Shown here: piece by piece, positions 987 through 58,322 of the stretch
How positions within the stretch are numbered: the stretch's first letter is position 1
Layout of the letters: every line of letters starts with the position of its first letter
Source: Gammaproteobacteria bacterium
GTDB taxonomy: Bacteria; Pseudomonadota; Gammaproteobacteria; Pseudomonadales; JADFDG01
Assembly (NCBI GenBank): GCA_046566505.1
Contig: JBKHWN010000159.1
Coordinates: 4,618 to 68,617 of the forward strand
Length of the DNA: 64,000 nucleotides
Reading direction: 5' to 3'
Translations under genes and position numbers: made by a program
The notes under the pieces: generated by a model
Told to the model about the DNA's origin: nothing
The model's database searches: none
What the model saw: only the letters and a program-made list of their open reading frames with translations

Positions 987-989
987 TAC

Positions 990-4197: not shown

Positions 4198-4198
4198 G

Positions 4199-7100: not shown

Positions 7101-7306
7101 AAGGCGTGTTCCTGGCCGCGGAAATTGATGCGGTTGATGCGGCGAAGCTGGGTGGCCAGCACATCTTCCAGAATCATGCGGGAGGTCTTGCCCCCGCGAA
7201 GGGTCAGCGCGTCGTCCGGCGACAGGCGCTGGTAGCCGAGGGCGACCAGCAGGCCGAGCGCCGGGACTTGTGAAGCTTGATTTTCGCGGTAGTCGGAGGC
7301 AGTCAT
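4199..7306 (-). CDS. hsdR: Type I restriction enzyme R subunit
   Basis: 1035 aa. Walker A is HTTGSGKSLTM and the DEAH-type box is VLIDESHRSQYG. SF2 helicase motifs; typical size and C-terminal helical domain. Confidence 0.95.
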   Translation of the reverse strand: MTASDYRENQASQVPALGLLVALGYQRLSPDDALTLRGGKTSRMILEDVLATQLRRINRINFRGQEHAFSDGNIQKAVQALTQLPFDSLIKTSEDIYDLITLGKSLEQTIDGYTRSYSLHYIDWEHPENNVFHVCSEFEVERHHSKLTRRPDLVLFVNGIPLVVIECKRPDLKDAVKEAVSQHLRNQRHDEIPELYAFSQLLLALSQNRALFATTDTPEKFWSFWKEERPAAQDAELATLIAPRLPSEQDRLIHSLLRKERLLELVYRYIVYDAKVKKVCRYQQYFAIQSTLDRVTQSRGDEARQGGVIWHTTGSGKSLTMVMLAKALTLSPAIRNPRVILVTDRVDLDDQIYKTFKNCGKQVAQARTGEDLVDLIVNGKAPIITTIINKFGTVGGKRGVKDPSPDIFVLIDESHRSQYGEMSARMRNVFPNACYIGFTGTPLLKIEKETARKFGGFIHSYTMSQAIKDGAVTPLLYEGRYSELHGDREQIDRWFERITKDLTKEQKADLKKKFRREEELTKADQRIAEIAYDVIQHYTAKYKGTGLKGQLACTSKEMALRYKAYFEEFGGVSVAVVISAPDTREGHTNTDESSIPAVQKFWKDMMDRHGNEKDYVKNVTSGFNYSDEPEILIVVDKLLTGFDAPRNAVLYIDKRLKDHNILQAIARVNRLFDGKDFGLIIDYRGIFGELNDAIDTYAELENQGFDRADVEDTLTDVSAELAKLPERHTHVCDVFKPVAQKRDIEAMQRHLEPADIRQRFYEVLSAFARTLQLAIGNARWQDETKEDIKRRYRDDLREFLNLRAAVKQRYGESVDYSAYEAQIRNLVNKYIGADTVRQIVAPVDIYAIDAFEQELLAIEGDAAKADAIANRVKKTITENMDEDPALYKRLSEMIDETIAEHRARRLSDAEYLARVRKQLDELRGKSSSDLPASLKPYSDAKAYYGVIREPLASYDIHGIEPSDLAAEIAIQVQVIIDGHKIRDWQGNDEVRKAILNAFDDYFDDLKETYGLDVPYAIRDELGDQLLRVAKRRDNA

Positions 7307-7412
7307 GGCTCAAGCCACTCTGAAAACGAGGAGGTCGGCCTACGACAAAGGTCGTCGGATGTTTGCAAAGGGCTACAGGAAGGAAGGTCGCAATAGGAGG
7401 GGGCACGTCCAT

Positions 7413-8222
7413 TCATGGCGCCACCGTTTCCTTGGCGGGCAGCAACCTGGCCATGTTCATGGCAGCAACGAGGTCATGCTGCGAGTTCAGGTGACGGCGG
7501 ACTGTCTGCAATGCCTGTTTCAAGCTGGCTATCTTGTCCTTGCTCTTCTGGCTGGCATCCCAGGACACATTCAGCGTGTCCATAAACGAAAAGAAGTACG
7601 CTTCCAGCGTTTCTGGAACCCAGAGAAAGTTGTGGGCAACAATTTTCTGCTCAAGCCCGTAGGATTCAAAAACGTATCCGGAGCGCGCATTCCAATACTT
7701 TGCCAGCCGGACTAAAGGACGAATCAGCCCATTGCAGCGCCGGTCCTTGGCGTCGAGATCCTTGCTGAATGCGTCTGGGGTAGTTTCCATCCACTTGAAG
7801 ATGGCGCCTTTCGCTGGGATCTGCAGGCCTGTCCAGATCGTGGCGTCCTTTGCAGGGACCAGCTCGAAGCGAATGTGGTTAAGATCCAGCGCGATGGTGG
7901 GGTGATCTTGATAGCGGGTCGAATTGCTGTATCGCCTTTCGGCGAATCGTTTGAGACGGTCCAGGTAGGTCTGGGGCTCCTTGTTTGAATCAGCGAACAC
8001 AACCATGTAATCGACATCGGACTGTTCGTCCATCCAGCGGGGCAGCATCGTCTGCCTTGCATACGAGCCAAAAATAAGTCGTTTCGACACGATTGCGTTG
8101 TCAAACTCTTCAAAAAGACGCTTGTCGAGAGTAGCTATCGACGTTTCGATGCCGGCCTTTTCTTGCTGCGACATCAGGGCGCCATTGGCGACTCTCTGCA
8201 GGTATGCGTTCACCGCTGACAT
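7413..8222 (-). CDS. SMODS/CD-NTase-like (pol-beta fold) nucleotidyltransferase
   Basis: FGSYARQTMLPRWMDEQSDVDYMVVF gives a GS...DxD active-site pattern, with a downstream acidic strand IRFELVPA. 269 aa. GGAG Shine-Dalgarno inside the end of the upstream 2TM gene; 1-nt gap. Confidence 0.7.
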   Translation of the reverse strand: MSAVNAYLQRVANGALMSQQEKAGIETSIATLDKRLFEEFDNAIVSKRLIFGSYARQTMLPRWMDEQSDVDYMVVFADSNKEPQTYLDRLKRFAERRYSNSTRYQDHPTIALDLNHIRFELVPAKDATIWTGLQIPAKGAIFKWMETTPDAFSKDLDAKDRRCNGLIRPLVRLAKYWNARSGYVFESYGLEQKIVAHNFLWVPETLEAYFFSFMDTLNVSWDASQKSKDKIASLKQALQTVRRHLNSQHDLVAAMNMARLLPAKETVAP

Positions 8223-8223
8223 C

Positions 8224-8730
8224 TCAAGGCTCCTTGTCTACCCGATGGGTTGCGCGATCTTCATCATCAATGTGCTTCCGGGCCTGCTCGTAAGCGAAGC
8301 CGGGGATACCGGAACTTGATGTGTTCAGCTCGGTACGGCGCCGATTCAATTCGGACAGCTGTGCCGTTGCGTCCTGCGCAGCCGAGGTCTGAGGAAGATC
8401 CACCGTCCGGAATATTCTGGCGTCGTTGCGCAGTGCGCCAAAACAGTCTCCAGCCGCCTTGTGTTCCTGGGCTTTCTCGGACGGGTTGAAGAATGTCAGC
8501 GCCGCGGCCGACAAACTGGAAAGAACGCCGGCGATGGCGGTCAGCCAAGTGCAATCCGAAAACGCGGACCCGCCAGCGATGGCACCGAAGAGCGCTGCGA
8601 TACCACCAATCACGTAATGGGTCGTCTTCCAGCGGGATTCAGCGTTGTAGTGTCCTTTTGACGAGAAGGTCGAATCCTCCTCGATGCGAGATGCCTCGTC
8701 GCCGATGGCTTTTCGGATTGTTTCGTCCAT
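8224..8730 (-). CDS. SLATT-like 2-TM effector protein
   Basis: 168 aa. Two adjacent hydrophobic helices (HYVIGGIAALFGAIAGGSAF and WLTAIAGVLSSLSAAALTFF) are followed by a charged helical tail. Sits immediately upstream of the NTase. Architecture matches SMODS-associated 2TM (SLATT) proteins. Confidence 0.6.
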   Translation of the reverse strand: MDETIRKAIGDEASRIEEDSTFSSKGHYNAESRWKTTHYVIGGIAALFGAIAGGSAFSDCTWLTAIAGVLSSLSAAALTFFNPSEKAQEHKAAGDCFGALRNDARIFRTVDLPQTSAAQDATAQLSELNRRRTELNTSSSGIPGFAYEQARKHIDDEDRATHRVDKEP

Positions 8731-8738
8731 ACGAGCCC

Positions 8739-9908
8739 CTATGCCTTGAGTCGCTTCTTGCCGGTCAGAAGAACGGCCATCAGGGCCTTCTTCTGACTTT
8801 CGAGCGCAGTTTTCTTTGCGATGAGCAAACGCAACTCCGTATCGGCCGCACCCAGAACCCTTGCAATCGCCGCCTGTTCCTTGGGGTCCGGCACAAGGAT
8901 GGATGCGTCCAAAAATTCGTCCACCTGAATTCTTCGGGCTTTTCGGCCGCCCTCCGCAGCGCCGGAGAATTGCGCGTAGAAGCTGGTTTGCCCAACGAAG
9001 CTCAGGAAGAATTCCGGGTTAATTCCGGGAGAGAAATCAAAGGCGGGAAGATCGAGCGTTGATTCGTATCCGTCCAGGCTGGGAGGAACGATGCCGAAAG
9101 CGCCATTTAGAAAATCAAGTTTTCCGTAAATAAATTGCCCGGCCTTACGACGGTAATACTTGGTGTTGTCGCTGCCGACCATGCGCTCTGAGCGCGGAAC
9201 CACGCCGTTCCCGTAGAGCTTAACAGTAAGCTTTCTTGCAGAGCTTCCGTCCGATCCGGGATTTCGGCTTTCAGTCAGGAAGGATCGGATTTGGGTCTGT
9301 GCCCACGGAGTCTTGAATCCTGGCAGGCGCATTTTACCAGTGAGCAGTTTCTGCATCAGCGCTTGCTTGCGTTGTTGTTTGGCGGCGATCAGGGATTCGG
9401 TGGTCGAAATTGCAACCTCCCATGAAACTACGGCCTTTGAGATGCGTGCTTGCTCCGCAGGCGTAGGAACGCCAACCTCTTGATCGAGGATGTCGTCACG
9501 GCGGACGTGCAGGAGGCTACTCTTAAACCCGTGGGCGTTTTCCTCGATCCTTTGAGTTACATCCATCAGCGCAAGGTAAAGCCATGATTTCTCGACCCCC
9601 GGCTTGGGGTGAACCTTGAATATGTGCTGGTTCAATACGCCGCGCGGGCCATTCCAGATTTTTGGCCCGAATGAAACCCCCTTTACTCCTGCCCAAGCGA
9701 ATAGGATTTGGCCTGGTTCAACCAGCCACCTTTTCTCTGGGTGGCCTTGGAAGTAGTTGAATTCCTTCGACCCGTTCAAATTCTGAATACGAATAATCGG
9801 AAGCCCGGACGATTTCCAGTCAGACGGTTTGAACCCGTTGCCACTTTCGAGGGTGCAAAGGTCGCGTACTAAGGCGACGCTCCATCCACTAGGAATCATT
9901 GCGACCAC
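8739..9908 (-). CDS. hsdS: Type I restriction enzyme S subunit (full length, two target-recognition domains)
   Basis: 389 aa. Has two conserved helical spacer regions (...AAKQQRKQALMQKLLTGKMRLPGF and ...ESQKKALMAVLLTGKKRLKA) that separate two variable domains. Confidence 0.9.
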   Translation of the reverse strand: MVAMIPSGWSVALVRDLCTLESGNGFKPSDWKSSGLPIIRIQNLNGSKEFNYFQGHPEKRWLVEPGQILFAWAGVKGVSFGPKIWNGPRGVLNQHIFKVHPKPGVEKSWLYLALMDVTQRIEENAHGFKSSLLHVRRDDILDQEVGVPTPAEQARISKAVVSWEVAISTTESLIAAKQQRKQALMQKLLTGKMRLPGFKTPWAQTQIRSFLTESRNPGSDGSSARKLTVKLYGNGVVPRSERMVGSDNTKYYRRKAGQFIYGKLDFLNGAFGIVPPSLDGYESTLDLPAFDFSPGINPEFFLSFVGQTSFYAQFSGAAEGGRKARRIQVDEFLDASILVPDPKEQAAIARVLGAADTELRLLIAKKTALESQKKALMAVLLTGKKRLKA

Positions 9909-10953
9909 CTTTTTTCGTCTTGCCTGCCTTCTCTAGCTTCTTGCTCTTGGTAATGGCCTCGACGAAATGCTTTTCCACCGGGCTTATTTCTGCCAACTGT
10001 GCCTGGCGGAATTTCTCGAACTCGATATGCGCTTTCTTCAGCGCCGTATCGTTGCTGATCCTGCCGGCATGGGTCAGGATGTCGCGCTCAGAAAGCCGCA
10101 GGAAGTCGTCGAGCTTTGAGACCCAGTCGGACATGCGCATCGCCCTTCGGCTTAGCGCCTGTAGTTCGGCGAACTCCAGGTAGAACGTGACGATCCGGTT
10201 CAGGGTGTCGAGCTCTTCGGTATTCAAGTAGTTCTTCGCCACCTCCGTATCGGCCTTGCGCGGCTTGTCGCCCTGCCAGCTCGTCAGGCCCATGTTGGGC
10301 TGCGTGGCGTCGGCGCGGCGCGCAATGACTTCGGCGGCAGTGTGACCGTGGGCAGCCCAGTGCATCTTGTTTTGCACCGTTGCGAAGAATAGCTGCGAGG
10401 TGTCCGTTTTCGGGTCGTAGTCGATGCTGGTGGCGTAGATCTCCAGCACCTTTTTCCAGAAGACTTTCTCCGAGCTGCGGATGTCGCGAATCCGCGCCAG
10501 CAACTCGTCGAAGTAATGGGTCTGCCCGGCCGCCTTGAGGCGGTCGTCGTCCATGGCGAAGCCCTTGATCAGGTATTCGCGCAGGCGCTGGGTCGCCCAG
10601 ATACGGAACTGGGTGCCGCGCCGGGACTTCACGCGGTAGCCGACCGAGATAATGACGTCCAGGTTGTAGAACTCGATGACCCGCTCGACCTGGCGCCCCC
10701 CCTCCGGCTGAACCGTTGCAAAATCTGCAACAGTTGCCTCCCGGAGCAGTTCCCCCTCCTCGAACACATTGCGAATGTGGCGGGAAATCACGGACTTATC
10801 GCGGCCGAACAGGTCCGCCATCTGCTGCAGGCTCAGCCAGACGGTCTCGCCGGCCATGCGCACCTCGATGCGCGACTGGCCGTCCTCGGTCTGGTAGAGC
10901 AGGAACTCGGAGCCGGACGGTGCGCCGGGCACGCCGATGGGGTTCTCAGACAT
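9889..10953 (-). CDS. rhuM: RhuM-family protein inserted between hsdM and hsdS
   Basis: FLLYQTEDGQSRIEVRMAGETVWLSLQQMADLFGRDKSVISRHIRNVF... is the typical RhuM N-terminus. I place the start at the ATG at 10953 (MSENPIG), an 8-nt overlap with the hsdM stop, rather than the track start at 11022. Confidence 0.8.
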   Translation of the reverse strand: MSENPIGVPGAPSGSEFLLYQTEDGQSRIEVRMAGETVWLSLQQMADLFGRDKSVISRHIRNVFEEGELLREATVADFATVQPEGGRQVERVIEFYNLDVIISVGYRVKSRRGTQFRIWATQRLREYLIKGFAMDDDRLKAAGQTHYFDELLARIRDIRSSEKVFWKKVLEIYATSIDYDPKTDTSQLFFATVQNKMHWAAHGHTAAEVIARRADATQPNMGLTSWQGDKPRKADTEVAKNYLNTEELDTLNRIVTFYLEFAELQALSRRAMRMSDWVSKLDDFLRLSERDILTHAGRISNDTALKKAHIEFEKFRQAQLAEISPVEKHFVEAITKSKKLEKAGKTKKGGRNDS

Positions 10954-12466
10954 AGCCGAGCTCCTTGAGGTAGCCGGCCATTTCCTTCTGTACGTCCTTG
11001 AGTTGCGCCTCCAGGGTGGCAATCTCCTTCTGTACCTTGGCCATGTCGATCTCGACTTCTTCCTCGAAGGTATCGACGTAACGCGGAATATTCAGGTTGT
11101 AGTCGTTCTCCTTGATCTCGGCGAGCGTGGCCTTGTGTGCATACTTCTCGACGTTCTTGCGCGCTTGTACGGTCTTGACGATTTTGGCGATGTCGTCCGG
11201 CCGCAGACGGTTCTGGTTCTTGCCGTCCTGGAAATCCCGGCTGGCGTCCACGAATATGACGCTCTTGTCTTTCTTGTTGCGGCGGAAGACGAGGATGGCT
11301 GCCGGGATGCCGGTGCCGTAGAAGAGGTTGGTTGGCAGGCCGATGACGGCGTCCAGCAGGTTCTCGTCGATCAACTGCTGGCGAATGCGGCCTTCGGCGC
11401 CGCCCCGGAACAAGACGCCGTGCGGTACCACGACACCAACGCGTCCGCTGGTGGCGGTTGTTGTTTCGATCATGTGGCTTATGAAGGCGTAGTCCGCCTT
11501 GGACTTCGGCGGTAGGCCACGATGAAAGCGCTGGAAGCTGTCTGTCTGGGCTTCTTCAATGCCCCACTTGTCCAACGAGAAGGGCGGGTTGGCGACGACC
11601 ACCTCGAACTTCATCAGACGGTGTTCTTCGGTCAGCTTCGGGCTGCGCAACGTGTCTCCCCATTCGATGCGGGCGCTGTCCACCCCGTGCAGGAAGAGGT
11701 TCATCTTCGCGAGCGCCCAGGTTTCGCTGTTGTTTTCCTGGCCGAATAGCGAGTAGTCCTTGATGCCCTTCCGGGTCAGTTGGTTTGCGCAGCGCAGCAG
11801 CAGCGAGCCCGAGCCGCAGGTCGGGTCGCAGATGCGTTCGCCAGGTTGCGGGTTAACCAATTCGGCCAACAGTTCGGAGACTTCTGCCGGGGTGTAGAAT
11901 TCCCCGGCCTTCTTACCGGCACCTGCGGCAAAGCGAGCGATCAGGTATTCGTAGGCGTTGCCGATCACGTCCAGATTGCCAATGCGGGACGGGCGCAGAT
12001 TCAGCCGGGCATCGTTGAAGTCCTCAAGCAGCATCTTCAGGCGTGCATTGCGGTCCTTGGTCTGGCCGAGGTTGGCTTCCGAGTTGAAGTCGATGTTGCG
12101 GAAAACGCCAGCCAACTTCTTCTTGTTGGCATCCTCTATGGCTTCCAGGGCGATGTTGATCAGCTCGCCAATGTTGGGCTTGTTGCGCTGCTCGTAGAGG
12201 TCGCGAAAGCTGGCCCCTTTGGGAAGCACGAAGCGGTCGCGCTCGAGGCGCCGGCGGATCGCGGCATCGTCACCCTTGTGCTTGGCGCTGAGTTCTTCGT
12301 AGTGCTCATCCCAGACGTCGCTGATGTATTTCACGAAGAGCGTAACGAGGATGTACGCCTTGTACTGCGAGGCGTCTATCACGCCCCGAAAGGTGTCGCA
12401 TGCCTTCCAGACGATGTTGTTGATTTCGTCCTGGTTGATCGGCGGGGTCTTTGCGCTCTTGCTCAT
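10946..12466 (-). CDS. hsdM: Type I restriction enzyme M subunit (N6-adenine methyltransferase)
   Basis: 506 aa. Catalytic motif VVANPPFS; AdoMet motif DPTCGSGSLL; HsdM N-terminal domain. Confidence 0.95.
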   Translation of the reverse strand: MSKSAKTPPINQDEINNIVWKACDTFRGVIDASQYKAYILVTLFVKYISDVWDEHYEELSAKHKGDDAAIRRRLERDRFVLPKGASFRDLYEQRNKPNIGELINIALEAIEDANKKKLAGVFRNIDFNSEANLGQTKDRNARLKMLLEDFNDARLNLRPSRIGNLDVIGNAYEYLIARFAAGAGKKAGEFYTPAEVSELLAELVNPQPGERICDPTCGSGSLLLRCANQLTRKGIKDYSLFGQENNSETWALAKMNLFLHGVDSARIEWGDTLRSPKLTEEHRLMKFEVVVANPPFSLDKWGIEEAQTDSFQRFHRGLPPKSKADYAFISHMIETTTATSGRVGVVVPHGVLFRGGAEGRIRQQLIDENLLDAVIGLPTNLFYGTGIPAAILVFRRNKKDKSVIFVDASRDFQDGKNQNRLRPDDIAKIVKTVQARKNVEKYAHKATLAEIKENDYNLNIPRYVDTFEEEVEIDMAKVQKEIATLEAQLKDVQKEMAGYLKELGYV

Positions 12467-13080
12467 GGTTGCTTTCCTTCGGCGAGTCGGGCGAGCGCGG
12501 CATTCAGCCAGCGCCCCTTGAGGGTGGTGAGTTGTTCGGTCAGTTCCTTTTCCCGTCGCCAGGCAGCCGCCACCGTGGCGATACGCTGCTGGATCTCCAT
12601 GGGGGGGAGTGGAACTGCAAGTTGCGACAGCGAGTGTCGCGGGACGTATTGGACGACGGCTCCGGTAGCAGAGCCCTTCAGATAGGCTTGGGCCGTTTCT
12701 TCATTGATGACCCAGGCGAGGTATTCGGGGGCCAGGAGGGATCGGTCCTTGATGCGTAGGATCGCAAGGTGCGGGCTGGCGACCGTTTGCCGGGGGGCGT
12801 CCCCCAGCGCTACGGCAAAGAAGCGGCTTCCCTTGCCAGAGAACAGCACATCTCCGGCCTGAAGCCAGGCCTCGTCTCTCACGTCCGCCAGGTCGGTAGG
12901 TGTCAGGGTGGCGATATTCAGCCCTCGCTCCGGGTCCAGGTCGCGCATCTGAATGATGCGCACGGCGCCCCCGGGGCGGTAGACAACCCGCTCCCGCAAT
13001 GGGATGCCGTTATGGATGGAGGCCAAAGCCTCCAGGGGTCTGGTCGGCAATTTTTGAGGCTCCTTCGCCTTTGATGACAA
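12463..13080 (-). CDS. Half-size type I S subunit (single target-recognition domain plus one conserved helix)
   Basis: 205 aa. One TRD-like region, then PPMEIQQRIATVAAAWRREKELTEQLTTLKGRWLNAAL, the conserved coiled-coil of HsdS. 4-nt overlap with the hsdM start. Confidence 0.7.
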   Translation of the reverse strand: MSSKAKEPQKLPTRPLEALASIHNGIPLRERVVYRPGGAVRIIQMRDLDPERGLNIATLTPTDLADVRDEAWLQAGDVLFSGKGSRFFAVALGDAPRQTVASPHLAILRIKDRSLLAPEYLAWVINEETAQAYLKGSATGAVVQYVPRHSLSQLAVPLPPMEIQQRIATVAAAWRREKELTEQLTTLKGRWLNAALARLAEGKQP

Positions 13081-13150
13081 CGCAGCCTAAGGGGTGCTAG
13101 AGTCTGGTGCAAGATATTTTGCATCAATGGCGATGATGGCGGGGGCGGGG

Positions 13151-13756
13151 ATGAAGAAGGATTTGTTTCTCAAGGAGCTGGCCCAGTCGGGCTACAACAT
13201 CGGGTATGCCGCCAAGAAGCACCTAGCGACCTTCGACATCGTCGAAAAAGCGCCGGGCTGGATCACCCTGGCGACCTTGGCCATCGGCATCTTTGCACTG
13301 GTCCTGCCGTCCCTTGAGCATCACCTGATTGCCGCATTGGTCATCGTGGTCGGCGTTGCCTCGATGTACTTCGGTTTTTATCAGGATTCCCGTGGCGGTT
13401 ACGAAAGGACGGGCAGTCGGCTGACGACGCTGTTCACCGAACTCCGCATGCTCTACGCCGAGGCGCAAAGCCTTGATGACAATGCGGACCTTGAAGGATT
13501 GAAGACCCGGTATAGGGCAATCCTCGAGGAATCGCAGCGTATCGGCATCAGCAAGCAGATTTTTCTCAGCGACTGGTACGCGCACTACAAATTCTTCTGG
13601 CAGGCGCAAACAGGCTGGCTGGACGAGCAACTGCATTTCGAATTCTGGCGAGACAAAGTCCCACTGTCGGCAACCGTTGTTGCCTGCGTGATGGTTATTG
13701 TTGGCCTCTTTGCAGCAGTTTCTGCCCTGGTCATTCACTTCGGTGCATGCCCATGA
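13151..13756 (+). CDS. SLATT-like (family-5-like) membrane effector protein
   Basis: The track ORF starts at a GTG at 13094. I prefer the ATG at 13151 (MKKDLFLKELAQSGYNIGYAAKKHLATFDIVEKAPGW), which follows a G-rich Shine-Dalgarno. Two central TM helices plus one C-terminal TM. Its stop overlaps the start of the downstream NTase (ATGA). Confidence 0.6.
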   Translation: MKKDLFLKELAQSGYNIGYAAKKHLATFDIVEKAPGWITLATLAIGIFALVLPSLEHHLIAALVIVVGVASMYFGFYQDSRGGYERTGSRLTTLFTELRMLYAEAQSLDDNADLEGLKTRYRAILEESQRIGISKQIFLSDWYAHYKFFWQAQTGWLDEQLHFEFWRDKVPLSATVVACVMVIVGLFAAVSALVIHFGACP

Positions 13757-15039
13757 GCGATTCCGAGCTGTTCGAGCAGTTCCGAAAGAATCTCTCGGTG
13801 AGCAATCGCGGAGACATCTCCACCAAATACTGCAACATCACCACCCGGCTAAACGCGGACTTCTGGGATCTGGAGTCCGACACTCGGCACAGCCTTCAGA
13901 TCGGTTCTTACGGCCGCGCCACCGCCATTGACGGCGTCAGCGATCTCGACATGGTGTTCGAGTTGCCCCCGGCAAACCTGGCGCGCTACAAGAGTCTGCA
14001 GGGGAACGGGCCGTCCGCGATGCTGCAGGAGGTGAAGGCTTCCCTTGAGAAGCGCTATCCAAAAACCGATGTTTCGGCGGACGGGCAAATTGTCGGTGTC
14101 AACTTCACAGGCTATCGAGTCGAGGTTCTGCCGGCGTTCCTTGATGAGAACGGGGACTATATTCACGGCGATACCAATGACGGAGGGTCGTGGAAGACGA
14201 CAAAGCCGCGACCAGAGATTCAGGCAATCAACGACCTGAACAAGAAGACGAATGGGAACCTCAAGGATTTGTGCATGATGCTGCGCGCCTGGAAGAACCG
14301 GGCAGGAGTAGGCATTGGCGGGCTGCTCATCGATACATTGACCTACAATTTCTGCAGTCAGCATGCTGGTATCGAGAATTTGACGTACCGCGACTACCCG
14401 ACTCTTATGGTTTCGCTGTTCACCCATCTGGGTGGCTTGCCGGATCAGGATTACTGGCTGGCTCCGGGAAGCAATCAGCGGGTACGGTGCAAGGCAAAGT
14501 TTCAAGCTAAGGCAAGGAAGGCGGCTGCCCGTTGTCAGGAGGCTGTCGACGCGACATCGGAAAATGCGCGGTCACGTCTTTGGAAAAAGGTTTTTGGACG
14601 CCCATTCCCGCAGCCGGAGGTTCAGCGGTTGGTGGAGTCGGCTTCAATCCCGAAAACGGAAGCGTTTATTGAAGATAAGTTCCCTGTCGATATTCGATAT
14701 AGCCTGGAGCTGGATTGTGAGGTGACTGAAAAGGGAAATCTCCGCGAGATGCTCCGTGGGCTTATCAGCAGTAAGCGAAGGGTCCCAACTGGCAGAGGAC
14801 TTCGCTTCTATGTCTCGGCGTGCGATGTACCCGGCGAATACGCGATATTTTGGAAGGTACGCAATAGAGGAGAAGAGGCCGAACGGAGTGGCAGGCTTCG
14901 GGGTGAAATTTCGTTCGACGAGGGCGGTCGTAAGGAGAAGCGAGAGACCGCAGACTTCCCGGGCGATCATTACGTCGAAGCATATGCAGTCAAAAATGGT
15001 GTCTGCGTTGCGCGGTGCAGAATTGCAGTGCCGATTTAA
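13747..15039 (+). CDS. SMODS-type nucleotidyltransferase with a C-terminal AGS-C-like sensor domain
   Basis: LQIGSYGRATAIDGVSDLDMVFELP gives GS-x11-DxD, and YRVEVLPAF gives the third acidic residue. A ~140-aa C-terminal extension follows (...LRFYVSACDVPGEYAIFWKVRNRGEEAE...). 430 aa. An alternative ATG at 13753 forms an ATGA overlap. Confidence 0.7.
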   Translation: MPMSDSELFEQFRKNLSVSNRGDISTKYCNITTRLNADFWDLESDTRHSLQIGSYGRATAIDGVSDLDMVFELPPANLARYKSLQGNGPSAMLQEVKASLEKRYPKTDVSADGQIVGVNFTGYRVEVLPAFLDENGDYIHGDTNDGGSWKTTKPRPEIQAINDLNKKTNGNLKDLCMMLRAWKNRAGVGIGGLLIDTLTYNFCSQHAGIENLTYRDYPTLMVSLFTHLGGLPDQDYWLAPGSNQRVRCKAKFQAKARKAAARCQEAVDATSENARSRLWKKVFGRPFPQPEVQRLVESASIPKTEAFIEDKFPVDIRYSLELDCEVTEKGNLREMLRGLISSKRRVPTGRGLRFYVSACDVPGEYAIFWKVRNRGEEAERSGRLRGEISFDEGGRKEKRETADFPGDHYVEAYAVKNGVCVARCRIAVPI

Positions 15040-15119: not shown

Positions 15120-16031
15120 TCAGGCCTGGTTTTGCGCCGGGGCAGGGGTGGAGCGTTGCTCCAGTCGCTGGCGCAGGCCCCCGGAGGGGACGGCGGTCAC
15201 GCCGGCCGGCGCAGGGGTGTCCGTGTCGGTCGGCGGGTAGAACTCCTCCAGGATCTCCGGCCCTTCCTCCTCGCTGAACTCGAAGGCCGCGTTACCGAAG
15301 CCCGCCTGAGCAGCGGCATCCAGTGCCGGCTGGTCCAATCCCGCTTCCAGGCGCCTGGCCGCCAAGGCTTTTGCCTCCGTGATGGCTTCCTCCAGCGACA
15401 TACCCTCCCGCACCCCCAGATCCACGTAGTAGATCGCCCCCCGATGGCTCTGGGTAGTGCTCTTGCCCCGCAGCCGTAGTTCCAGCGGCAGGCAAGCGAG
15501 CAGGTTCCCTGACACCGCCTTGTAGTAGCTCAACCGTGCCGCCAGCGTGCGAATCGAGTTGAACCCCGTGGTACGGAAGATGAACGTCCCGACCTCGTCG
15601 TCGTCTCCGATCCGGACGTTGAGGCGGCCATACGGCTTGCACATCCCGCCCTTGGCCAACTCGCAGACATCAGGAGACGGGCACGGAAGTGTCTGGACGC
15701 CAGCGGACGTTACGCGTCGGCACGTTTCCCCGTTGCCCACGCAGACCGGTCGCCCCGTCTGCCGGTCGAACATCGAATATTCCGCCCGCAGGTTCAGGTC
15801 GGGGTCGTTGAACAGCATGCGCACCGGGATGCTGCGCAGCTTCCCGTTCGGCGCGTTCTTGCGCAGCTCCTCGTCGTAGGGGTGCGGCACCCAGGCGCCG
15901 GCCACCTGGACCTGGGTGGTGATGGTGAACTGGTCGTCCTTCTCGGGCAGTCGCTTGCCATTCTTCTCGACGACACGCCCGATGCTGATTCGCCCGAGCA
16001 CGGGCGGGGTGATCGCAAGGCCTTTGATCAT
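15120..16031 (-). CDS. Conserved island protein with a Cys cluster (possible metal-binding); putative partner of the YqaJ exonuclease
   Basis: 303 aa. Cys cluster in CVGNGETC...LPCPSPDVCELAKGGMC. Acidic, Pro-rich tail. Lies directly downstream of yqaJ in the same orientation. Function not assignable from sequence alone. Confidence 0.5.
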   Translation of the reverse strand: MIKGLAITPPVLGRISIGRVVEKNGKRLPEKDDQFTITTQVQVAGAWVPHPYDEELRKNAPNGKLRSIPVRMLFNDPDLNLRAEYSMFDRQTGRPVCVGNGETCRRVTSAGVQTLPCPSPDVCELAKGGMCKPYGRLNVRIGDDDEVGTFIFRTTGFNSIRTLAARLSYYKAVSGNLLACLPLELRLRGKSTTQSHRGAIYYVDLGVREGMSLEEAITEAKALAARRLEAGLDQPALDAAAQAGFGNAAFEFSEEEGPEILEEFYPPTDTDTPAPAGVTAVPSGGLRQRLEQRSTPAPAQNQA

Positions 16032-17475: not shown

Positions 17476-17724
17476 GTGGACATAACAGAGGCCTTTGGGC
17501 GTGCCGTCAAAGCGCGTCGTGCCGAGGTGGGGATCACCCAGGAAGACCTGGCTGACAAGGCCGAGGTAGCCCGGTCTTTCGTATCAGCCATGGAGCGGGG
17601 CGAGAAGGCCCCGACCATTCGGACGGTCTGGCGACTGGCATCAGCACTTCACTGCAAGCCCTCCGACCTCTGGCTCACCACTGAGCGCTTGGTCGACGAA
17701 GGCGCCCAGAAAAAGCGACGCTGA
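17476..17724 (+). CDS. XRE-family helix-turn-helix transcriptional regulator
   Basis: 82 aa. ITQEDLADKAEVARSFVSAMERGEKAPTIRTVWRLASAL is a classic Cro/C1 HTH. Confidence 0.85.
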   Translation: MDITEAFGRAVKARRAEVGITQEDLADKAEVARSFVSAMERGEKAPTIRTVWRLASALHCKPSDLWLTTERLVDEGAQKKRR

Positions 17725-17745: not shown

Positions 17746-18135
17746 TCAGGCCTCCTCCTTGAAGAAGTCCGTCAGCAATGTGCGGATTATCGTTCTCGCC
17801 TTGTCGACCTCGGGCAATTGCCCGTCATTCAGAATCACGTGGTCCCCCAACAGGGCACCGAGTTCCGAGATGACCTCGTACTCGAATACCCCGGGGAAGC
17901 CCTGCGACGCATCTCGCCAGCGTGCCTCGACCTGCCGCCAGACTTCCGGCAGGTAGCTGCAGCACTGCCAGAGCAGTTCCAGGCAGCCCTGGTTCCACGC
18001 ATCCAGCACGCGCTGGGCGCGATCGGGCTGTCGGCTGGACACCATGACCCCCTCGAACAGGAACGCGCCCCAGACGGCTGCCAGGTCGGCGGGAATGGGT
18101 GTGTCGGCACTGGCCGGTACGGGAGCCCGGTTCAT
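17746..18135 (-). CDS. Hypothetical protein (third gene of an overlapping three-gene operon)
   Basis: I place the start at the ATG at 18135 (MNRAPVPASADT...), 8 nt downstream of a GGAGG. ATGA overlap with the upstream stop. The track's 197-aa N-terminal extension is Arg/Gly-rich and implausible. Confidence 0.5.
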   Translation of the reverse strand: MNRAPVPASADTPIPADLAAVWGAFLFEGVMVSSRQPDRAQRVLDAWNQGCLELLWQCCSYLPEVWRQVEARWRDASQGFPGVFEYEVISELGALLGDHVILNDGQLPEVDKARTIIRTLLTDFFKEEA

Positions 18136-18917
18136 GCCGCCACCTCCAGTGCTTTGCGCACCGACTGACGCCCCTCCGAGAACACCGTGGCGTTCGGATG
18201 GACGTAAGCCAGCAGCTGGAACCACCACGGTTCTTCCGTGAGCTGGCGATGCTGGTCGGCATGCCCGTTGTTGCCGCTGACGTGCACCTCCAAGCAGCGC
18301 TCGCAGGCGAGCATCTCGCACACCAGGTTCCGTTCCCACCGGTTGGTGTGGATGGTCAGGATGTGCAGGTGCGAGAGATCAAGCGCGTAGCGGACACCGG
18401 ATTCCAGCAAGGCCCGGTACTCGCCCCAGGACGACAGCGCCCAGTAGTCCCCGTGGGTCGGGTAGTGACCCTCGATTCCCACGGGAACGCCGAACAGGTC
18501 TTCCAGTTCGCGCGTGTAGCGGAAGATCTCCTGCAGGCTGGCCTCGTGCCGGCGTCCCGCGTGCGCCGTGTAGGCGGTCGCTTCCAGGGCCTGCGACACG
18601 CGCGCCAGTTCGCGGAAGTAGTCCTGCTCCTGTGGCCAGTCGCAGATGTCGGCCCATCGATGCATCCCGCGCACGCGCACGTTGGCGTGCAGGCGCCAGT
18701 GGATGTGCGGGAAGGCCTCGCGTACCTGTTGCGCCGTCTCGACCGTGAACAGGCCATGGTTCTGGGGGCAGATCTGCACGTGCTCCGTCGAGAGTCGGCC
18801 CCAAAGGGGTTCCTCCGGCGGGGTCACGAGCATCTCGGCGATGGCGATCAGGTGCGGGGTGCGACCGTAGGCCCCGAGCGATACGTGGATGGGTGGCCGA
18901 CTACAGGGAGTGCTCAT
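18132..18917 (-). CDS. Xylose-isomerase-like / DUF692-like TIM-barrel protein (putative metal-dependent enzyme)
   Basis: The ATG at 18917 follows a GGAGA Shine-Dalgarno. An ordered pattern of His/Glu/Asp-containing strands parallels the DUF692 protein at 57438-58292. Pairs: RLHANVRV vs LLHGLSLS; AYTAHAG vs TYSEHLS; VGIEGHY vs IAMENVSY; ALDLSHLHI vs LLDVNNVYV; LEVHVSGNNGHADQH vs [18 protein letters not shown]. Confidence 0.5.
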   Translation of the reverse strand: MSTPCSRPPIHVSLGAYGRTPHLIAIAEMLVTPPEEPLWGRLSTEHVQICPQNHGLFTVETAQQVREAFPHIHWRLHANVRVRGMHRWADICDWPQEQDYFRELARVSQALEATAYTAHAGRRHEASLQEIFRYTRELEDLFGVPVGIEGHYPTHGDYWALSSWGEYRALLESGVRYALDLSHLHILTIHTNRWERNLVCEMLACERCLEVHVSGNNGHADQHRQLTEEPWWFQLLAYVHPNATVFSEGRQSVRKALEVAA

Positions 18918-19338
18918 AGCTGGTGCTCTCCGTGTAGTAGGCCGTGTGCTCAAGGTGGATTGCGTCGTCGGGGACGTTGATGGTCACCGTGCCGCAGGCG
19001 CCGTCATCGTTCTCCCAGCCGCCATACAGCGCATCGACCCAGCGCATGGCGAAGTCGCGCACCGCTTCGTCCAGCGCCAATTCGGTCTCGCGCATGGAGC
19101 AGGCGCGCTGGCCGTAGCCGAGGTACTGCACATCGACCACGTGTTGCTTGACCTTGATCGCGCTGAGCCCGTCCAGAACCTCGGGCGGCTGAACTGCCAG
19201 ATCGCAGGTGTCGCCGGAATCACCGGCGCCGGCGTAATCGACCTTGGCCGTGATGACGCCCTGTTCCGTCAGGGCCTGGATCAGAAGAGCGCGGTTCTTC
19301 TCTTGCGCCTGCGTGGCAAGCGCCTGGTAATCGGACAT
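18901..19338 (-). CDS. Conserved ICE-associated hypothetical protein (possibly DUF6878-like)
   Basis: Start at the ATG at 19338 (MSDYQALATQAQEKNRALLIQALTEQGV...). 145 aa, acidic. Lies next to a DUF932 gene, as in many integrative elements. Family assignment is from memory only. Confidence 0.45.
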   Translation of the reverse strand: MSDYQALATQAQEKNRALLIQALTEQGVITAKVDYAGAGDSGDTCDLAVQPPEVLDGLSAIKVKQHVVDVQYLGYGQRACSMRETELALDEAVRDFAMRWVDALYGGWENDDGACGTVTINVPDDAIHLEHTAYYTESTSYEHSL

Positions 19339-19437
19339 GGGAATCTCTTGCGCCAGTGAGGGCGAATCAGGTATCGGGGCCACAACGCAAAAGCCCGGCG
19401 CGAGGCCGGGCTTCTGTGCCGTGGGGTGGTGGTGTGC

Positions 19438-20397
19438 TCAGGAGACCAGCGCGAGCGCCTGGTCGAGCGCCTTCTGCTTCAGCGCGGCGCCGTTGCCGAA
19501 CCAGGCCGAGTCCAGCCGGTAGTCGGTGTTGCGCGCCCGGCGCTCGTGGTCGACGAACTCCGTCACGGCGTTGAGCAGGCCGTAGGCCGTGTTCTTCGAT
19601 GACGCCAGCTCCGAGCCGCGGCCCTGCCCGTTGTAGAGCTCCAGCGTGCGCTTCATCAGCCGCTCGCTGGTCTGCACCGGACCAGGCTTGTTCTCGTCGG
19701 CAAACAGCTTCCAGAAAAAGTGTTCGGCCTCGGTCGACTGGACCTTCCGCTGGCTGAGTGCCTTCAACTGGTACATGAACCGGTCCCAACTCGAGACGCA
19801 GATCCCCAGCTGCCGTTTCACCGCCTGCGGATCGAACGTGGTGGAGTGGGGGACCTTCACCGCGCTGGGGCTGCCGTCCAGGGCGACGGTCAGGGTGTTG
19901 TTGCAGACCACCCGGATCATCGTGAATTGCGCCGTGGTGGCCAGCGTGCCATCGCAGGCCGTGGCCAGCAGCACATAGCCGTTGCTGACGTCATTGCCCT
20001 TGAACACGGTGGACTGCCCGGTGCGGGCCAGCGCCCACACCTTGCGGCCACCCTTGAGCACACCGGCGGTCTCCAGCTCGAAGCCGGAGATCTCGGTGAG
20101 GTCGCGATAGAACTCCAGCACCTCGCGCGGCTGTACGACGCGGAAGCGCTGGCTGACGACTGAGAGCGGGGCCTCGGTGTCCGAGCGATAGAGAACCTTG
20201 TGGTCCTCGAAGGTCTTGATACTGCGCAGGTGCTGGGCGCCGCCGGTCATGAAGCTGACCGGGGCTTCCTTGATGGTCCAGTCCATCCCGGCCTGTTTGG
20301 CCCAGGTCTCGATGGACTGGCGCGGCGCGAGCGGGTTGCCCAGCCCGTGCCACGGGGTCTGGCCGACGTAGGCCATGGTTTCAACAAGATGAGCCAT
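19438..20397 (-). CDS. DUF932 (phage/plasmid-like) domain protein
   Basis: 319 aa. MAHLVETMAYVGQTPWHGLGNPL...WTIKEAPV is the characteristic DUF932/DUF945 N-terminus. Confidence 0.85.
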   Translation of the reverse strand: MAHLVETMAYVGQTPWHGLGNPLAPRQSIETWAKQAGMDWTIKEAPVSFMTGGAQHLRSIKTFEDHKVLYRSDTEAPLSVVSQRFRVVQPREVLEFYRDLTEISGFELETAGVLKGGRKVWALARTGQSTVFKGNDVSNGYVLLATACDGTLATTAQFTMIRVVCNNTLTVALDGSPSAVKVPHSTTFDPQAVKRQLGICVSSWDRFMYQLKALSQRKVQSTEAEHFFWKLFADENKPGPVQTSERLMKRTLELYNGQGRGSELASSKNTAYGLLNAVTEFVDHERRARNTDYRLDSAWFGNGAALKQKALDQALALVS

Positions 20398-20505: not shown

Positions 20506-21000
20506 TCAGAGCAGGCCGCGTTCAGCGAAGCTCACGTAGCTGTTCCGGGACACGACGAAGTGGTCGAGGACCCGGACGTCGATGAGGGCGAGGGCATCGG
20601 TCAGCCGGCGGGTGATCTGCCGGTCAGCCATTGATGGCTCGCACTCGCCGCTGGGGTGGTTGTGGGCAAAGATCACGGCGCCGGCATTGAACTCCAGCGC
20701 CTTCTGGACGACGACGCGGGGATAGACCGAGGCGCCGTCCACCGTGCCAGTGAACAGGGTCTCGAAGCGGAGCAGGTGGTGTTGGGTCGACAGGAAGAGG
20801 GCGGCGAAGTGCTCGTTCTTCTCCTGAGCCAGAGCGAGCTGGACGAAGCGGGCGGCATTGGCCGGATTGGACATGACCTCCTTGCCGGCGAGGTCGTCGA
20901 GCAGGATGTCGGCTGCGACCCGGACCAGTTCCTCCGGCCGGAAGTAACCGCGCACCCGGTACAGGCCCTGCTCGTTCTTGATGAACTGTGGCTTGGACAT
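20506..21000 (-). CDS. radC: RadC-like JAB/MPN domain protein
   Basis: JAMM motif in VIFAHNHPSGECEPSMADRQIT. Start at the ATG at 21000 (MSKPQFIKNEQGLY); the track extension is unlikely. Confidence 0.9.
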   Translation of the reverse strand: MSKPQFIKNEQGLYRVRGYFRPEELVRVAADILLDDLAGKEVMSNPANAARFVQLALAQEKNEHFAALFLSTQHHLLRFETLFTGTVDGASVYPRVVVQKALEFNAGAVIFAHNHPSGECEPSMADRQITRRLTDALALIDVRVLDHFVVSRNSYVSFAERGLL

Positions 21001-21059
21001 GCTGGACTCCAGAAACGCGAAGGCCCGCACGCGGCGGGCCTGGATGCTTAGGTCAGGGG

Positions 21060-21392
21060 TCAACCGCGCCGGCGGTTGAAGGTGTGGCCGCACTCTTGGC
21101 ACTGGTAGTTGTCGAGGATGTTCTCGTCGACGAAATCGCCAAGTGCGGCACCGGCGGCACCGCCGGTGACACCGCCCACCAGACCGCCGAGGACGGCACC
21201 GGCAATCGAGCCGATGGCAATGCCCGCGGGACCGCCGACGACGCCGAGGGCGGCGCCCGCCTGGGCACCGCGACTGGCCGCCATGGCACCGCTGGCCGCA
21301 CCGGCCATGGTGCCGAGGCCAGAGCCGACGCGCCGGCCGTTATGGATCGTGCTGATGAGCCCGGATTCGCATCGCGGGCATTGAATGGACAT
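21060..21392 (-). CDS. Zinc-ribbon / glycine-zipper small protein
   Basis: CPRC near the N-terminus and CQEC near the C-terminus flank a long Gly/Ala zipper (GAAGAALG...). Confidence 0.55.
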   Translation of the reverse strand: MSIQCPRCESGLISTIHNGRRVGSGLGTMAGAASGAMAASRGAQAGAALGVVGGPAGIAIGSIAGAVLGGLVGGVTGGAAGAALGDFVDENILDNYQCQECGHTFNRRRG

Positions 21393-21999: not shown

Positions 22000-23349
22000 C
22001 TACCCAGACTCTCCATTCCGCGTGGTTGCACCTGACTGCTTCGCAGTCATCAGTGTGTACAGTAGCTCAAGCGCCTGCCGCTTTTCGGCAGCGTAGTCGT
22101 GCATGTTGTAGTGCTTGTGCTGTACCCCATGCAGCCCATGCGACTGCAGGTGGGCGCGGATCTCGCCGTTGATTCCCGCCGCGGCCAGGCGGGTTTCTAC
22201 GGTGCGCCTCAGATCGCCAGGCGTGAACGGCTCCCGCGCCTCCCCCGCGCCCACCATTTCCGCGACGACCGACTGGAGGGCATGACGGAACGTCGTGTGC
22301 GTGACAGGCTTTTCACCCATGGTCAGGGTTAGCAGGTAAGGCCCCGTGGCCGGCGCGCCCATCTGTTCAAGCGCTTCCTTTGCTTCCGGCAGCAGCGGGA
22401 CCAGGTGTCGCCGTGCCTCCGTGCGTCGCCCCTTGCTGTCGCTGATCACAGCAGCATCCCCGTCGAGATCGCGAACGGTCAAACGGACTAGTTGCTGAAT
22501 GCGCTGGCCTCCAGTCAGTAAATGGAAGCGGAGCAGGGCGCCCTCAGGTCCCTGCATGACCTGGATGCGACGCCAGTACGCCTGCAGTTCCGCAAGATCC
22601 AGAACGCGTGAGCGCGCCTTGCTGGCACCTTCAATCGTCGGCACATCCCGCAGGGGGTTGTGCCGGATACCAAACTTTCTCAGGCCGACTGCGGCGCCTG
22701 ACGATCGGGCTCGGATGGCAGCCGAGAATGCTGCCCGCAGGTAGGAGCGGACCTTGGCCGCTTCGCGCAGCTTGCCGGCTTCGGTAATCAGATCCAGCAC
22801 GGGGGCGATGCTGTCGTCATCAACCCGATCTGCCGGCAGCTTCCAGATTTTCGGGAAAGCATCCCGGATGTGGCGATGGATCGAAGTTTCCACCGCCCGC
22901 GCGCTCGGTTTCTGCAGGTGCTTGAGGTGGGCCACATAGGCCTCGAGGAGGGCGCCCAGCGTCTGCTCCTGGGCTCGCCGGGCGACTTCCGCCTCCTGCT
23001 CCTTTTTGCGCTGGCTCTCCCGGACGGCTTCTGCCTGCTGTTCCTTGCGCATCTGGATGGCCGCACGCAGGTCGGTTTCGCCGGCCTGGTAGCGGCTGCG
23101 CAGTTCGTTGGCCTTCTGGCGGGCGCCGGCCAGTGTCAATTGCAGTTCGCCGTCGTTGGTTTCGGACCACTCGCCGATGGGAAGCTGGACACGCTTGCCG
23201 TCGGAACCGGTGTAGCGGAAATAAAAGATGACCCGGCCGCTCTGGTTGCGACGGGCATAGAGCTGGCCGGCGCCTCGGGGGTCACCGTCAGAAAGCCACT
23301 TGAGCGGCTTGGCAGTTTCCAACTGCTTTACTCGGATAAGATTGCCCAC
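22000..23349 (-). CDS. int: Tyrosine-type site-specific integrase (P4-like, DUF4102-type N-terminus)
   Basis: 449 aa. N-terminus ...LSDGDPRGAGQLYARRNQSGRVIFYFRY. C-terminal catalytic region contains ...HDLRRT-like GDLRRTVETRL and HGLHGVQHKHY. Adjacent to a tRNA-like att site. Confidence 0.9.
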   Translation of the reverse strand: MGNLIRVKQLETAKPLKWLSDGDPRGAGQLYARRNQSGRVIFYFRYTGSDGKRVQLPIGEWSETNDGELQLTLAGARQKANELRSRYQAGETDLRAAIQMRKEQQAEAVRESQRKKEQEAEVARRAQEQTLGALLEAYVAHLKHLQKPSARAVETSIHRHIRDAFPKIWKLPADRVDDDSIAPVLDLITEAGKLREAAKVRSYLRAAFSAAIRARSSGAAVGLRKFGIRHNPLRDVPTIEGASKARSRVLDLAELQAYWRRIQVMQGPEGALLRFHLLTGGQRIQQLVRLTVRDLDGDAAVISDSKGRRTEARRHLVPLLPEAKEALEQMGAPATGPYLLTLTMGEKPVTHTTFRHALQSVVAEMVGAGEAREPFTPGDLRRTVETRLAAAGINGEIRAHLQSHGLHGVQHKHYNMHDYAAEKRQALELLYTLMTAKQSGATTRNGESG

Positions 23350-23415: not shown

Positions 23416-23501
23416 TAGGCGCTGGTTTCAGGCGTGACGCGACGGAAGACTGCGGACAGTAAAATGAATAACCTATTGATAATGCTAGGACGCTATTTCC
23501 G

Positions 23502-23587
23502 TGGCGGACGGTGGCGGAAAGATTGCAAGGGACTTAAAATCCCTCGACCGCAAGGTCATGCCGGTTCGATTCCGGCTCCGGGCACCA
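23502..23587 (+). tRNA. tRNA-Leu(UAA)-like sequence with a defective 5' third; probable displaced 3' tRNA fragment or att site
   Basis: Canonical features run from the anticodon arm onward. They are AGGGA-CTTAAAA-TCCCT (anticodon TAA at 23535-23537), a long variable arm, T-arm GCCGG-TTCGATT-CCGGC, and 3' acceptor TCCGGGC-A-CCA. The 5' strand TGGCGGA pairs at only 4 of 7 positions. Positions 8 and 14 are C, not U and A. A direct repeat GTGGCGGA x2 (23501-23518) lies at the junction. Confidence 0.55.
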
Positions 23588-58292: not shown

Positions 58293-58322
58293 GACTGCCC
58301 CTCCAGACGCTAAGCGATGGTG

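Follow-up and report, generated by a model that had tools for sequence, protein, structure and literature searches.

A DUF6878–TIM-barrel gene pair of mobile elements, with a predicted trinuclear-type metal site related to those of multinuclear iron oxidases and endonuclease IV

In a stretch of 64,000 nucleotides from a Gammaproteobacteria bacterium (contig JBKHWN010000159.1, positions 4,618 to 68,617; this whole stretch is referred to as the window), three genes, here named g1, g2 and g3, lie on the minus strand at 17746–19338 within an integrase-borne island. The preliminary description of this DNA had seen in them overlaps of 17 and 4 nucleotides, with good Shine-Dalgarno sites that are weaker for g1, and both coordinates and sequence confirm this arrangement, whose features, all on the minus strand, are:

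18901–19338: g1, upstream partner of g2, 145 amino acids, acidic (isoelectric point, pI, 4.3), DUF6878 (from the open reading frame listing and the sequence)
18132–18917: g2, 261 amino acids, a (beta/alpha)8 barrel with a predicted nine-residue metal site of the trinuclear type
17746–18135: g3, 129 amino acids, acidic (pI 4.5), lineage-specific and outside the conserved core
18901–18917: overlap of g1 stop and g2 start, 17 nucleotides, translational coupling (read from the sequence)
18132–18135: overlap of g2 stop and g3 start, 4 nucleotides, ATGA (read from the sequence)
18928–18931: Shine-Dalgarno site GGAG for g2, within g1, 10 nucleotides 5' of the ATG at 18917
18143–18147: Shine-Dalgarno site GGAGG for g3, within g2, 7 nucleotides 5' of the ATG at 18135
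19344–19349: ribosome site of g1, weaker, AAGAGA only (read from the sequence)
19392–19407: terminator-like GC hairpin and T-run, separating a DUF932 gene from g1

A search for a sigma-70-like promoter 5' of g1 found none. The two proteins flanking the barrel had been taken to lack any recognised function, and indeed none is known for either; g3 gave no match to any family in Pfam, NCBIfam, PHROGs or PADLOC, but g1 does match Pfam DUF6878 (E 1.5e-19), itself a family without known function. The PHROGs and PADLOC libraries likewise returned nothing for g1 or g2.

The conserved unit is made up of two genes, those for DUF6878 and the barrel, which are almost always paired and translationally coupled. 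Among 73 loci surveyed (65 from contigs chosen as one genome per species and 8 further contigs, designated by L numbers), four are cut by contig ends and some are duplicates of one element; in 62 of the 69 informative loci the first codons of the g2 homologue contain the end of a DUF6878 gene, and in one more that gene lies about 129 nucleotides off. Where the longest-reading-frame call begins at the true g2 start, the overlap is 17 nucleotides in 15 loci and 4 nucleotides in another 15. The five or six loci without an upstream DUF6878 gene carry the most divergent g2 homologues (36–50% identity), and in them genes without a Pfam family stand upstream, often overlapping. Homologues of g3, on the other hand, were found at 14 of the 73 loci, in close relatives only and sometimes kilobases from g2, while elsewhere the slot 3' of g2 is occupied by a protein of ~180 amino acids (24 loci), a protein of 77–107 amino acids in Burkholderia, YqaJ or singletons, families for which hhalign finds no relation to each other. 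Of the three-gene operon with its own partners that had been proposed, and whose co-occurrence was to be checked, the upstream partner has thus stood and the downstream one has not: g3 would be a lineage-specific add-on. A conserved partner of the sort that accompanies multinuclear iron oxidases (MNIOs, or DUF692 proteins), which are peptide-modifying enzymes, had also been considered for g3, and is ruled out by its occurrence in 14 of 73 loci and by the unrelated downstream genes elsewhere.

Certain lineages show elaborations of their own around the pair. The protein of ~180 amino acids mentioned above, which is acidic and has no family match, belongs to the Acidovorax/Rubrivivax-type lineage, where its gene overlaps the stop of g2 (L007:8749–9282 and 23 further loci). 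Agitococcus lubricus DSM 5822 holds the DUF6878–barrel pair four times in one genome (L025, L026, L027 and L029), and the metagenome-assembled genome QR_Bin.12, the closest to the window, holds it twice (L011 and L012, 97% and 95% identity). Some loci (L027 and L028) have an extra DUF6878 paralogue just upstream.

As to its genomic setting, the module has been inserted as an accessory into integrase-borne islands, conjugative plasmids and other elements of beta- and gammaproteobacteria, and the g2 family is confined to mobile elements, where establishment and anti-restriction genes abound around it. Its typical neighbours are DUF932, RadC, YqaJ, ArdB/KlcA-type anti-restriction proteins, orphan methylases and ParB-like proteins, with PLD-like nuclease genes also among them; a DUF932 gene is near the pair in 26 of the 73 loci, and in some, such as L008 with a gap of 1 nucleotide, it abuts g1 directly. 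For example, the pair is present on a Cupriavidus plasmid, with an orphan methyltransferase, DUF4942 and a SprT-like protein nearby; on pBPSE01, a conjugative B. pseudomallei plasmid of the MOBF type; and in elements of the Burkholderia cepacia complex alongside VirB8-10 of a type IV secretion system, ParDE, an ArdB/KlcA-type Antirestrict protein (PF03230) and a SNF2 helicase. PIN and RES toxin-antitoxin pairs, like ParDE, adjoin the module on islands and plasmids. A single viral contig carries a g2 homologue (36% identity), in the order DUF932, a reading frame of 277 amino acids, DUF6878, g2 and PolA.

The g2 family can be seen to be both sizeable and unannotated, since a 90%-clustered collection yields 383 homologues at E≤1e-3, all unnamed or "hypothetical", and a profile search that covered 1.84 billion representatives yields 408 clusters at 50% identity at the same threshold, all unannotated, with 184 at E≤1e-30. 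The earlier recognition of g2 as a xylose-isomerase-like TIM (triosephosphate isomerase) barrel is borne out by an AlphaFold2 model built with 43 homologues, which has eight beta/alpha units, a mean local confidence (pLDDT) of 93.5 and a global score (pTM) of 0.90, and by a Foldseek comparison of this model with the PDB, which gave 197 matches at E≤1e-3, the top 50 of them all in the xylose-isomerase-like TIM-barrel clan. The best match by both E-value and template-modelling (TM) score is a D-tagatose-3-epimerase-like protein (3wqo; E 4.3e-8, TM 0.64), and the others include TglH (8hci, E 6.6e-8), MbnB (7fc0, E 1.8e-6), AP endonuclease 2 (3ngf, E 4.1e-6), endonuclease IV (3aam, E 1.7e-5) and a DUF692 protein (3bww, E 2.3e-5). 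TglH and MbnB, which the preliminary description had singled out for structural comparison, are therefore both matched, as is endonuclease IV, with g2 inside the clan.

Sequence searches place g2 less readily. Against PDB sequences, both the single sequence and a 43-sequence profile produced chance matches only. In the Pfam scan, g2 by itself reaches AP_endonuc_2 (PF01261) with E 9e-4 and 19.4 bits, under the cut-off of 31.1, and its best NCBIfam match is the MNIO model ApyH (E 7.6e-4, 18.7 bits, with a cut-off of 400). When 43 family members were run one by one through hmmscan, weak matches to ApyH appeared in 34 and to AP_endonuc_2 in 17, while at E≤1 none matched PF05114 (MbnB_TglH_ChrH) and neither g2 nor its family matched the NCBIfam nfo models. 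Thus, the two profiles against which the protein was to be held, PF05114 and AP_endonuc_2, both fail to claim it. Comparisons of single sequences by hhalign were marginal for g2 against HvfB (E 0.067) and empty for g2 against E. coli Nfo, so that small family profiles were needed. The HvfB in question is encoded within the window itself (57438–58292, minus strand), where matches to PF05114 (2.1e-100, 335.8 bits) and NCBIfam HvfB (3.7e-129) confirm it as the bona fide DUF692 protein it was said to be.

The profiles compared were a 258-sequence alignment of the g2 family, a DUF692 profile of 8 sequences, among them the HvfB of the window, and one for endonuclease IV, the MNIO and endonuclease IV profiles being small and made from plasmid-borne genes. 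With these, the g2 family matches MNIOs at a probability of 95.4 (E 1.8e-8, 179 columns, aligned ligands in register) and endonuclease IV marginally, at a probability of 29.7 (E 5.6e-4, 177 columns, with the aligned ligands, the first eight, in register), whereas no relation is detected between the endonuclease IV profile and the MNIO profile (E 0.22). Judged by these profiles, g2 represents a separate, undescribed family that bridges the MNIO/DUF692 enzymes and endonuclease IV and is nearer to the MNIOs in sequence.

It had been noted that g2 has an ordered series of His, Glu and Asp residues in common with HvfB but is otherwise of low similarity to it, and both halves of that statement are correct: overall identity with the HvfB of the window is ~20%, and the common series is genuine, the above hhalign E-value putting it well outside what chance would give. 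The conservation of the ligands likewise bears examination, nine residues being kept in 255–258 of the 258 homologues, namely H77, H119, E149 and H183 in all 258, H212 and H223 in 257, D221 and E248 in 256 and D180 in 255. By comparison, the iron ligands of MbnB are H55, H91, E135, D165, N168, H194, D209, (H211) and E238 (PMC8888699) and those of TglH are H71, H107, E151, D184, N187, H216, D229, H231 and E258 (PMC10880893). The alignment with HvfB pairs H77 with H62, H119 with H97, E149 with E141, D180 with D173, H183 with N176, H212 with H204 and D221/H223 with D218/H220, and, as it stops at residue 237, E248 is matched to HvfB E247 by position only. The g2 family hence has eight of the nine MNIO ligands, with His replacing the Asn of D-x-x-N (MbnB N168, TglH N187). 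A further motif of the family, H77-A-N79, whose Asn is present in 234 of 258 sequences, is reminiscent of the TglH-specific catalytic H71-x-N73 (PMC10880893).

In small, diverse samples, the residue at the third-site position is Asn in 8 of 8 DUF692 proteins and His in 7 of 7 endonuclease IV sequences. In E. coli Nfo, we take the zinc ligands to be H69, H109, E145, D179, H182, H216, D229, H231 and E261, with roles reportedly set out by Hosfield et al. in 1999; the Nfo sequence does carry these nine residues at those positions, and all are invariant in the seven endonuclease IV sequences. The nine residues of g2 are of the same types and in the same order as this H-H-E-D-H-H-D-H-E series, D-x-x-H included. 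From this conservation, g2 is predicted to have a complete nine-residue site of the kind in which MNIOs and endonuclease IV hold three metal ions. The earlier label of a divergent DUF692 protein is accordingly right as to its nearest profile relatives and wrong as to membership: g2 is not assignable to DUF692, because no family member matches PF05114 and the Asn ligand is absent.

The extent of this site bears directly on whether g2 could be a plain isomerase or epimerase of sugars or sugar phosphates, of the AP_endonuc_2 type and carried as metabolic cargo, a role that had been among those first suggested for it. The top Foldseek match to 3wqo, followed by many epimerases and xylose isomerases, and the weak PF01261 matches are what such an enzyme would give, but it would be expected to have a single-metal E-D-H-E site, whereas in g2 H77, H119, H183, D221 and H223 are invariant too, completing the nine. 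Moreover, sugar transport or catabolic genes are not seen in the annotated neighbourhoods, which consist of mobile-element genes only, g2 is nearly always paired with DUF6878 (62/69), and its best profile similarity is to the MNIOs. We consider such a metabolic role very improbable indeed.

The most serious contender to the reading favoured below is an endonuclease-IV-like trinuclear Zn/Mn phosphodiesterase, which might act, e.g., on AP (abasic) sites, on 3'-blocking groups of incoming DNA or on a nucleotide immune signal, while the acidic DUF6878 protein would regulate or inhibit it or serve it as a DNA-mimic adaptor. Hydrolytic chemistry of the Zn type is a live alternative because the third-site His is that of endonuclease IV while MNIOs have Asn: the nine ligands match those of Nfo in type and order, and D-x-x-H is invariant in the g2 family where every MNIO examined has D-x-x-N. 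To this can be added the in-register, if marginal, hhalign alignment (E 5.6e-4 over 177 columns), the weak AP_endonuc_2 matches in 17 of 43 members, DNA-processing neighbours such as the YqaJ exonuclease, RadC, DUF932, ParB-like and PLD-like nucleases, and the strong acidity of DUF6878 (median pI 4.4), reminiscent of DNA-mimic anti-restriction proteins. Yet the profile relationship is far weaker than that with the MNIOs (probability 29.7 versus 95.4), the nfo models are without a match at E≤1 and PF01261 stays at 19.4 bits against 31.1; endonuclease IV itself requires no partner protein, and neither metal nor chemistry follows from one His/Asn difference. On balance, a phosphodiesterase of this kind is possible, if somewhat doubtful.

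The partner of the barrel, DUF6878, has a life of its own in phages. It is acidic as a family (g1 itself has a pI of 4.3) and is marked by the conserved motifs YxGxGDxG and GWE..G..G and by H131; the AlphaFold2 model of g1 has a pLDDT of 83.8, and a search of BFVD with it returned only another DUF6878 protein. It is encoded on 28 viral contigs (L090–L117, GC 0.29–0.65), none of which has g2 within 3 kb and all of which have a DUF6915 gene within ~2 kb, often abutting it (e.g., in L112, DUF6878 at 3004–3360 and DUF6915 at 3360–3701). DUF6915 (PF21866, phrog_8143, function not known) is a His-rich protein of ~110 amino acids with the motif HPYHHA...RHRALRHHxEG, and was found at none of the 73 g2 loci. 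As the 28 phage contigs have DUF6915 without g2 and none of the 73 g2 loci has DUF6915, DUF6878 can be seen as the constant component, with g2 and DUF6915 as its alternative His-rich companions. Neither DUF6878 nor DUF6915 is mentioned in the searchable literature.

Several variations and candidate features of DUF6878 may be recorded here. In the Burkholderia cepacia complex, the protein (L004:7171–8004) is 277 amino acids long with two DUF6878 matches, which looks like a tandem duplication, and its C-terminal tail is different and Gly/Ser-rich. The tail of g1 (LEH..YYTES..YEHSL; conserved, modelled with low confidence) was considered as a shared recognition element and dropped, as it diverges in Burkholderia; nor was it found, as a shared substrate, in the non-DUF6878 proteins upstream of the most divergent g2 homologues. 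Three apparent g1-g2 "fusions" of 411 amino acids proved to be frame artefacts of long GC-rich reading frames.

The phage distribution is also what speaks most directly to a third possibility, that g1-g2 is a toxin-antitoxin or enzyme-immunity addiction module stabilising the island, with g2 as a toxic metallo-nuclease and DUF6878 as its antitoxin. The gene order is that of type II systems, with a small acidic protein first, an overlap of 4 or 17 nucleotides and g1 accompanying g2 in 62 of 69 loci; the module adjoins ParDE, PIN and RES pairs on islands and plasmids; and the nearest fold to g1 in the PDB, the sole one above a TM-score of 0.35, is the DUF600 protein BH3703 (TM 0.37, E 0.15), from a family that we presume to be immunity-like. 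However, that DUF600 match is not significant, g1 has no DNA-binding autoregulatory domain and PADLOC has no match. All 28 phage loci have DUF6878 with DUF6915 and lack g2, which is not how a dedicated antitoxin would be distributed and implies that DUF6878 has a function of its own. An addiction module is, therefore, distinctly improbable.

On sequence grounds, g2 belongs to a family related to MNIOs and endonuclease IV. In the reading favoured here, g1 and g2 would associate in a complex like those of MNIOs and their partners, and the multinuclear metal centre of g2 would act on DUF6878 or on a target presented by it. The chemistry would be an MNIO-like, O2-dependent modification, with a candidate site in DUF6878 at the loop YxGxGDxG, which is invariant, acidic and rich in Gly, and the active DUF6878 species might then help the incoming element to establish. 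Oxidative chemistry is preferred because the profile relationship to the MNIOs is by far the stronger one and because dependence on a partner is typical of these enzymes. Taken whole, the statement that g2 is a new trinuclear-metal family working with or on DUF6878 by MNIO-like oxidative chemistry is put forward tentatively, at somewhat less than even confidence.

A number of observations weigh against it. The third-site position is His in all 258 members where MNIOs carry Asn, and PF05114 fails throughout the 43 members tested. The partner is an upstream, folded, acidic DUF6878 protein of 145 amino acids and not MbnC, a RiPP (ribosomally synthesised and post-translationally modified peptide) recognition element (RRE) protein such as TglI or ApyI, or DUF2063; the g1 model has no PDB match at E<1e-3, although MbnC and TglI are included there, and, given this and the BFVD result, g1 is unlike MbnC, TglI or RRE partners. 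None of the three Cys residues of g1 is conserved across the family, which leaves the earlier idea of neighbouring Cys residues as substrates without support from g1, and no g1-g2 fusion is found in 269 family members. The putative establishment or anti-defence role is read from the neighbourhood only, and PADLOC and PHROGs returned nothing.

A bolder extension of the favoured oxidative scheme would make DUF6878 an effector of mobile elements and phages that is matured by a metalloenzyme, the barrel in proteobacterial islands and plasmids and the unrelated, His-rich DUF6915 in phages; g2 would then be the first MNIO-type enzyme to modify a folded protein, at the YxGxGDxG loop, and not a RiPP peptide, and would thereby help mobile DNA to establish itself or to counter defences. 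This is speculative and, as matters stand, unlikely.

The features of the island on either side of the genes are as follows:

23498–23583, plus strand: tRNA-Leu(taa), the probable integration site (ARAGORN)
22000–23349, minus strand: tyrosine integrase at the island end (Pfam Arm-DNA-bind_3 and Phage_integrase)
20506–21102, minus strand: RadC-like JAB protein, island backbone (Pfam E 3.3e-42)
19438–20397, minus strand: DUF932 gene, the frequent upstream neighbour (Pfam E 3.1e-72)
17476–17724, plus strand: convergent HTH_3 (Cro/C1-type) regulator (Pfam E 1.4e-15), in the same arrangement in L010
16092–17009, minus strand: YqaJ-type exonuclease, island backbone (Pfam E 1.1e-44)
15120–16031, minus strand: Gp3-like protein (PF18897), island backbone (Pfam E 2.7e-45)
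13747–15039, plus strand: SMODS and AGS_C
10946–12466, 8739–9908 and 4199–7306: HsdM, HsdS and HsdR of a type I restriction-modification system
7413–8222, minus strand: second SMODS protein
3481–4197: YgjP
990–2486 and 312–986: DUF3375 and DUF4194

Leftwards from the tRNA-Leu gene, the order is hence integrase, RadC, DUF932, g1–g3, the HTH regulator, YqaJ, the Gp3-like protein and a defence cargo at 312–15039 that comprises SMODS, the type I restriction-modification genes and DUF3375/DUF4194, the last two of which are presumably JetA and JetB of Wadjet. The region had been described as one for the maintenance of an integrative and conjugative element; this is not borne out, the island having a tRNA-Leu-adjacent integrase and defence cargo, and an element of that type is unproven since the 64-kb window has no conjugation genes. 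Zhao et al. (PNAS 2025, PMC12595487) showed that a jumbo phage transduces islands in which tyrosine integrase, RadC, DUF932, YqaJ and HTH genes go with a defence cargo, and the island of the window resembles these in its backbone genes, tRNA-adjacent integrase and defence cargo. In island I23 from the same study, and in P. fluorescens islands of this class, DUF932 is followed directly by YqaJ, whereas in the window the block of g1, g2, g3 and the HTH gene fills this slot; that block can accordingly be regarded as an accessory insert and not as core island machinery.

Two other parts of the window deserve a brief mention. Between RadC and the integrase, a reading frame for 110 amino acids (21060–21392, minus strand) has CxxC...CxxC ends (MSIQCPRCES...QCQECGHTF) around a long Gly/Ala-rich core, and may encode a zinc-ribbon membrane or glycine-zipper protein. 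Outside the island, on the chromosome, lies a complete MNIO cluster of the HvfA/B/C type (56653–58850, minus strand), in which the HvfA-type precursor, with a signal peptide and repeated EGKCGEGKCG motifs, is found within the reading frame at 58323–58850; a protein of 262 amino acids (56653–57441) occupies the DUF2063/HvfC position 3' of HvfB, an assignment made by position, and a DoxX-like membrane protein may lie at 58843–59463 on the plus strand.

The family is new in being unannotated, in its partner and context, and in linking two known enzyme families. Unusual peptide chemistry is being found in MNIOs at a growing pace, and to our knowledge all characterised MNIOs are located in RiPP clusters; a sister family of ~400 clusters at 50% identity would carry multinuclear TIM-barrel chemistry into the biology of mobile elements, with a third metal site composed as in endonuclease IV, a novel protein partner and a distribution over mobile elements only. 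Because the endonuclease IV and MNIO profiles miss each other and yet both detect the g2 family, it offers a natural evolutionary intermediate for relating a Zn3 phosphodiesterase site to an Fe2-3 oxidase site. It also provides a starting point for understanding DUF6878 and DUF6915, which are both common in phages and islands and without a literature.

Seen against the known systems, g2 occupies a position of its own within the clan. With the D-tagatose/D-psicose 3-epimerase-like proteins and xylose isomerase (PF01261), it has in common the best Foldseek match (3wqo) and weak PF01261 matches, but the metal site of these enzymes is single or double (E-D-H-E), whereas the g2 family conserves five more ligands and lacks a sugar-metabolism context. 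With endonuclease IV (Nfo, AP endonuclease family 2) the parallels are the same fold, nine identical site residues and a DNA-related neighbourhood; the profile similarity is, however, marginal (E 5.6e-4, probability near 30%) with no nfo match, and g2 is almost always paired with another protein and is not a chromosomal housekeeping repair gene. With the MNIO/DUF692 enzymes (MbnB, TglH, HvfB, BufB and ApyH; PF05114), which typically depend on a partner protein (PMC8888699, PMC10880893, PMC11117315), g2 has in common the TIM-barrel clan, its best profile-profile match (E 1.8e-8, 179 columns) and eight of nine metal ligands, in register except for E248, which is placed by position only; it differs in having no PF05114 match in 43 members and an invariant His for the third-site Asn, and its locus is without a leader-peptide precursor, conserved Cys, signal peptide or transporter. 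Like the MNIOs, it is encoded with a dedicated partner gene, but where their setting is the RiPP cluster, that of g2 is the company of genes with which mobile elements establish themselves.

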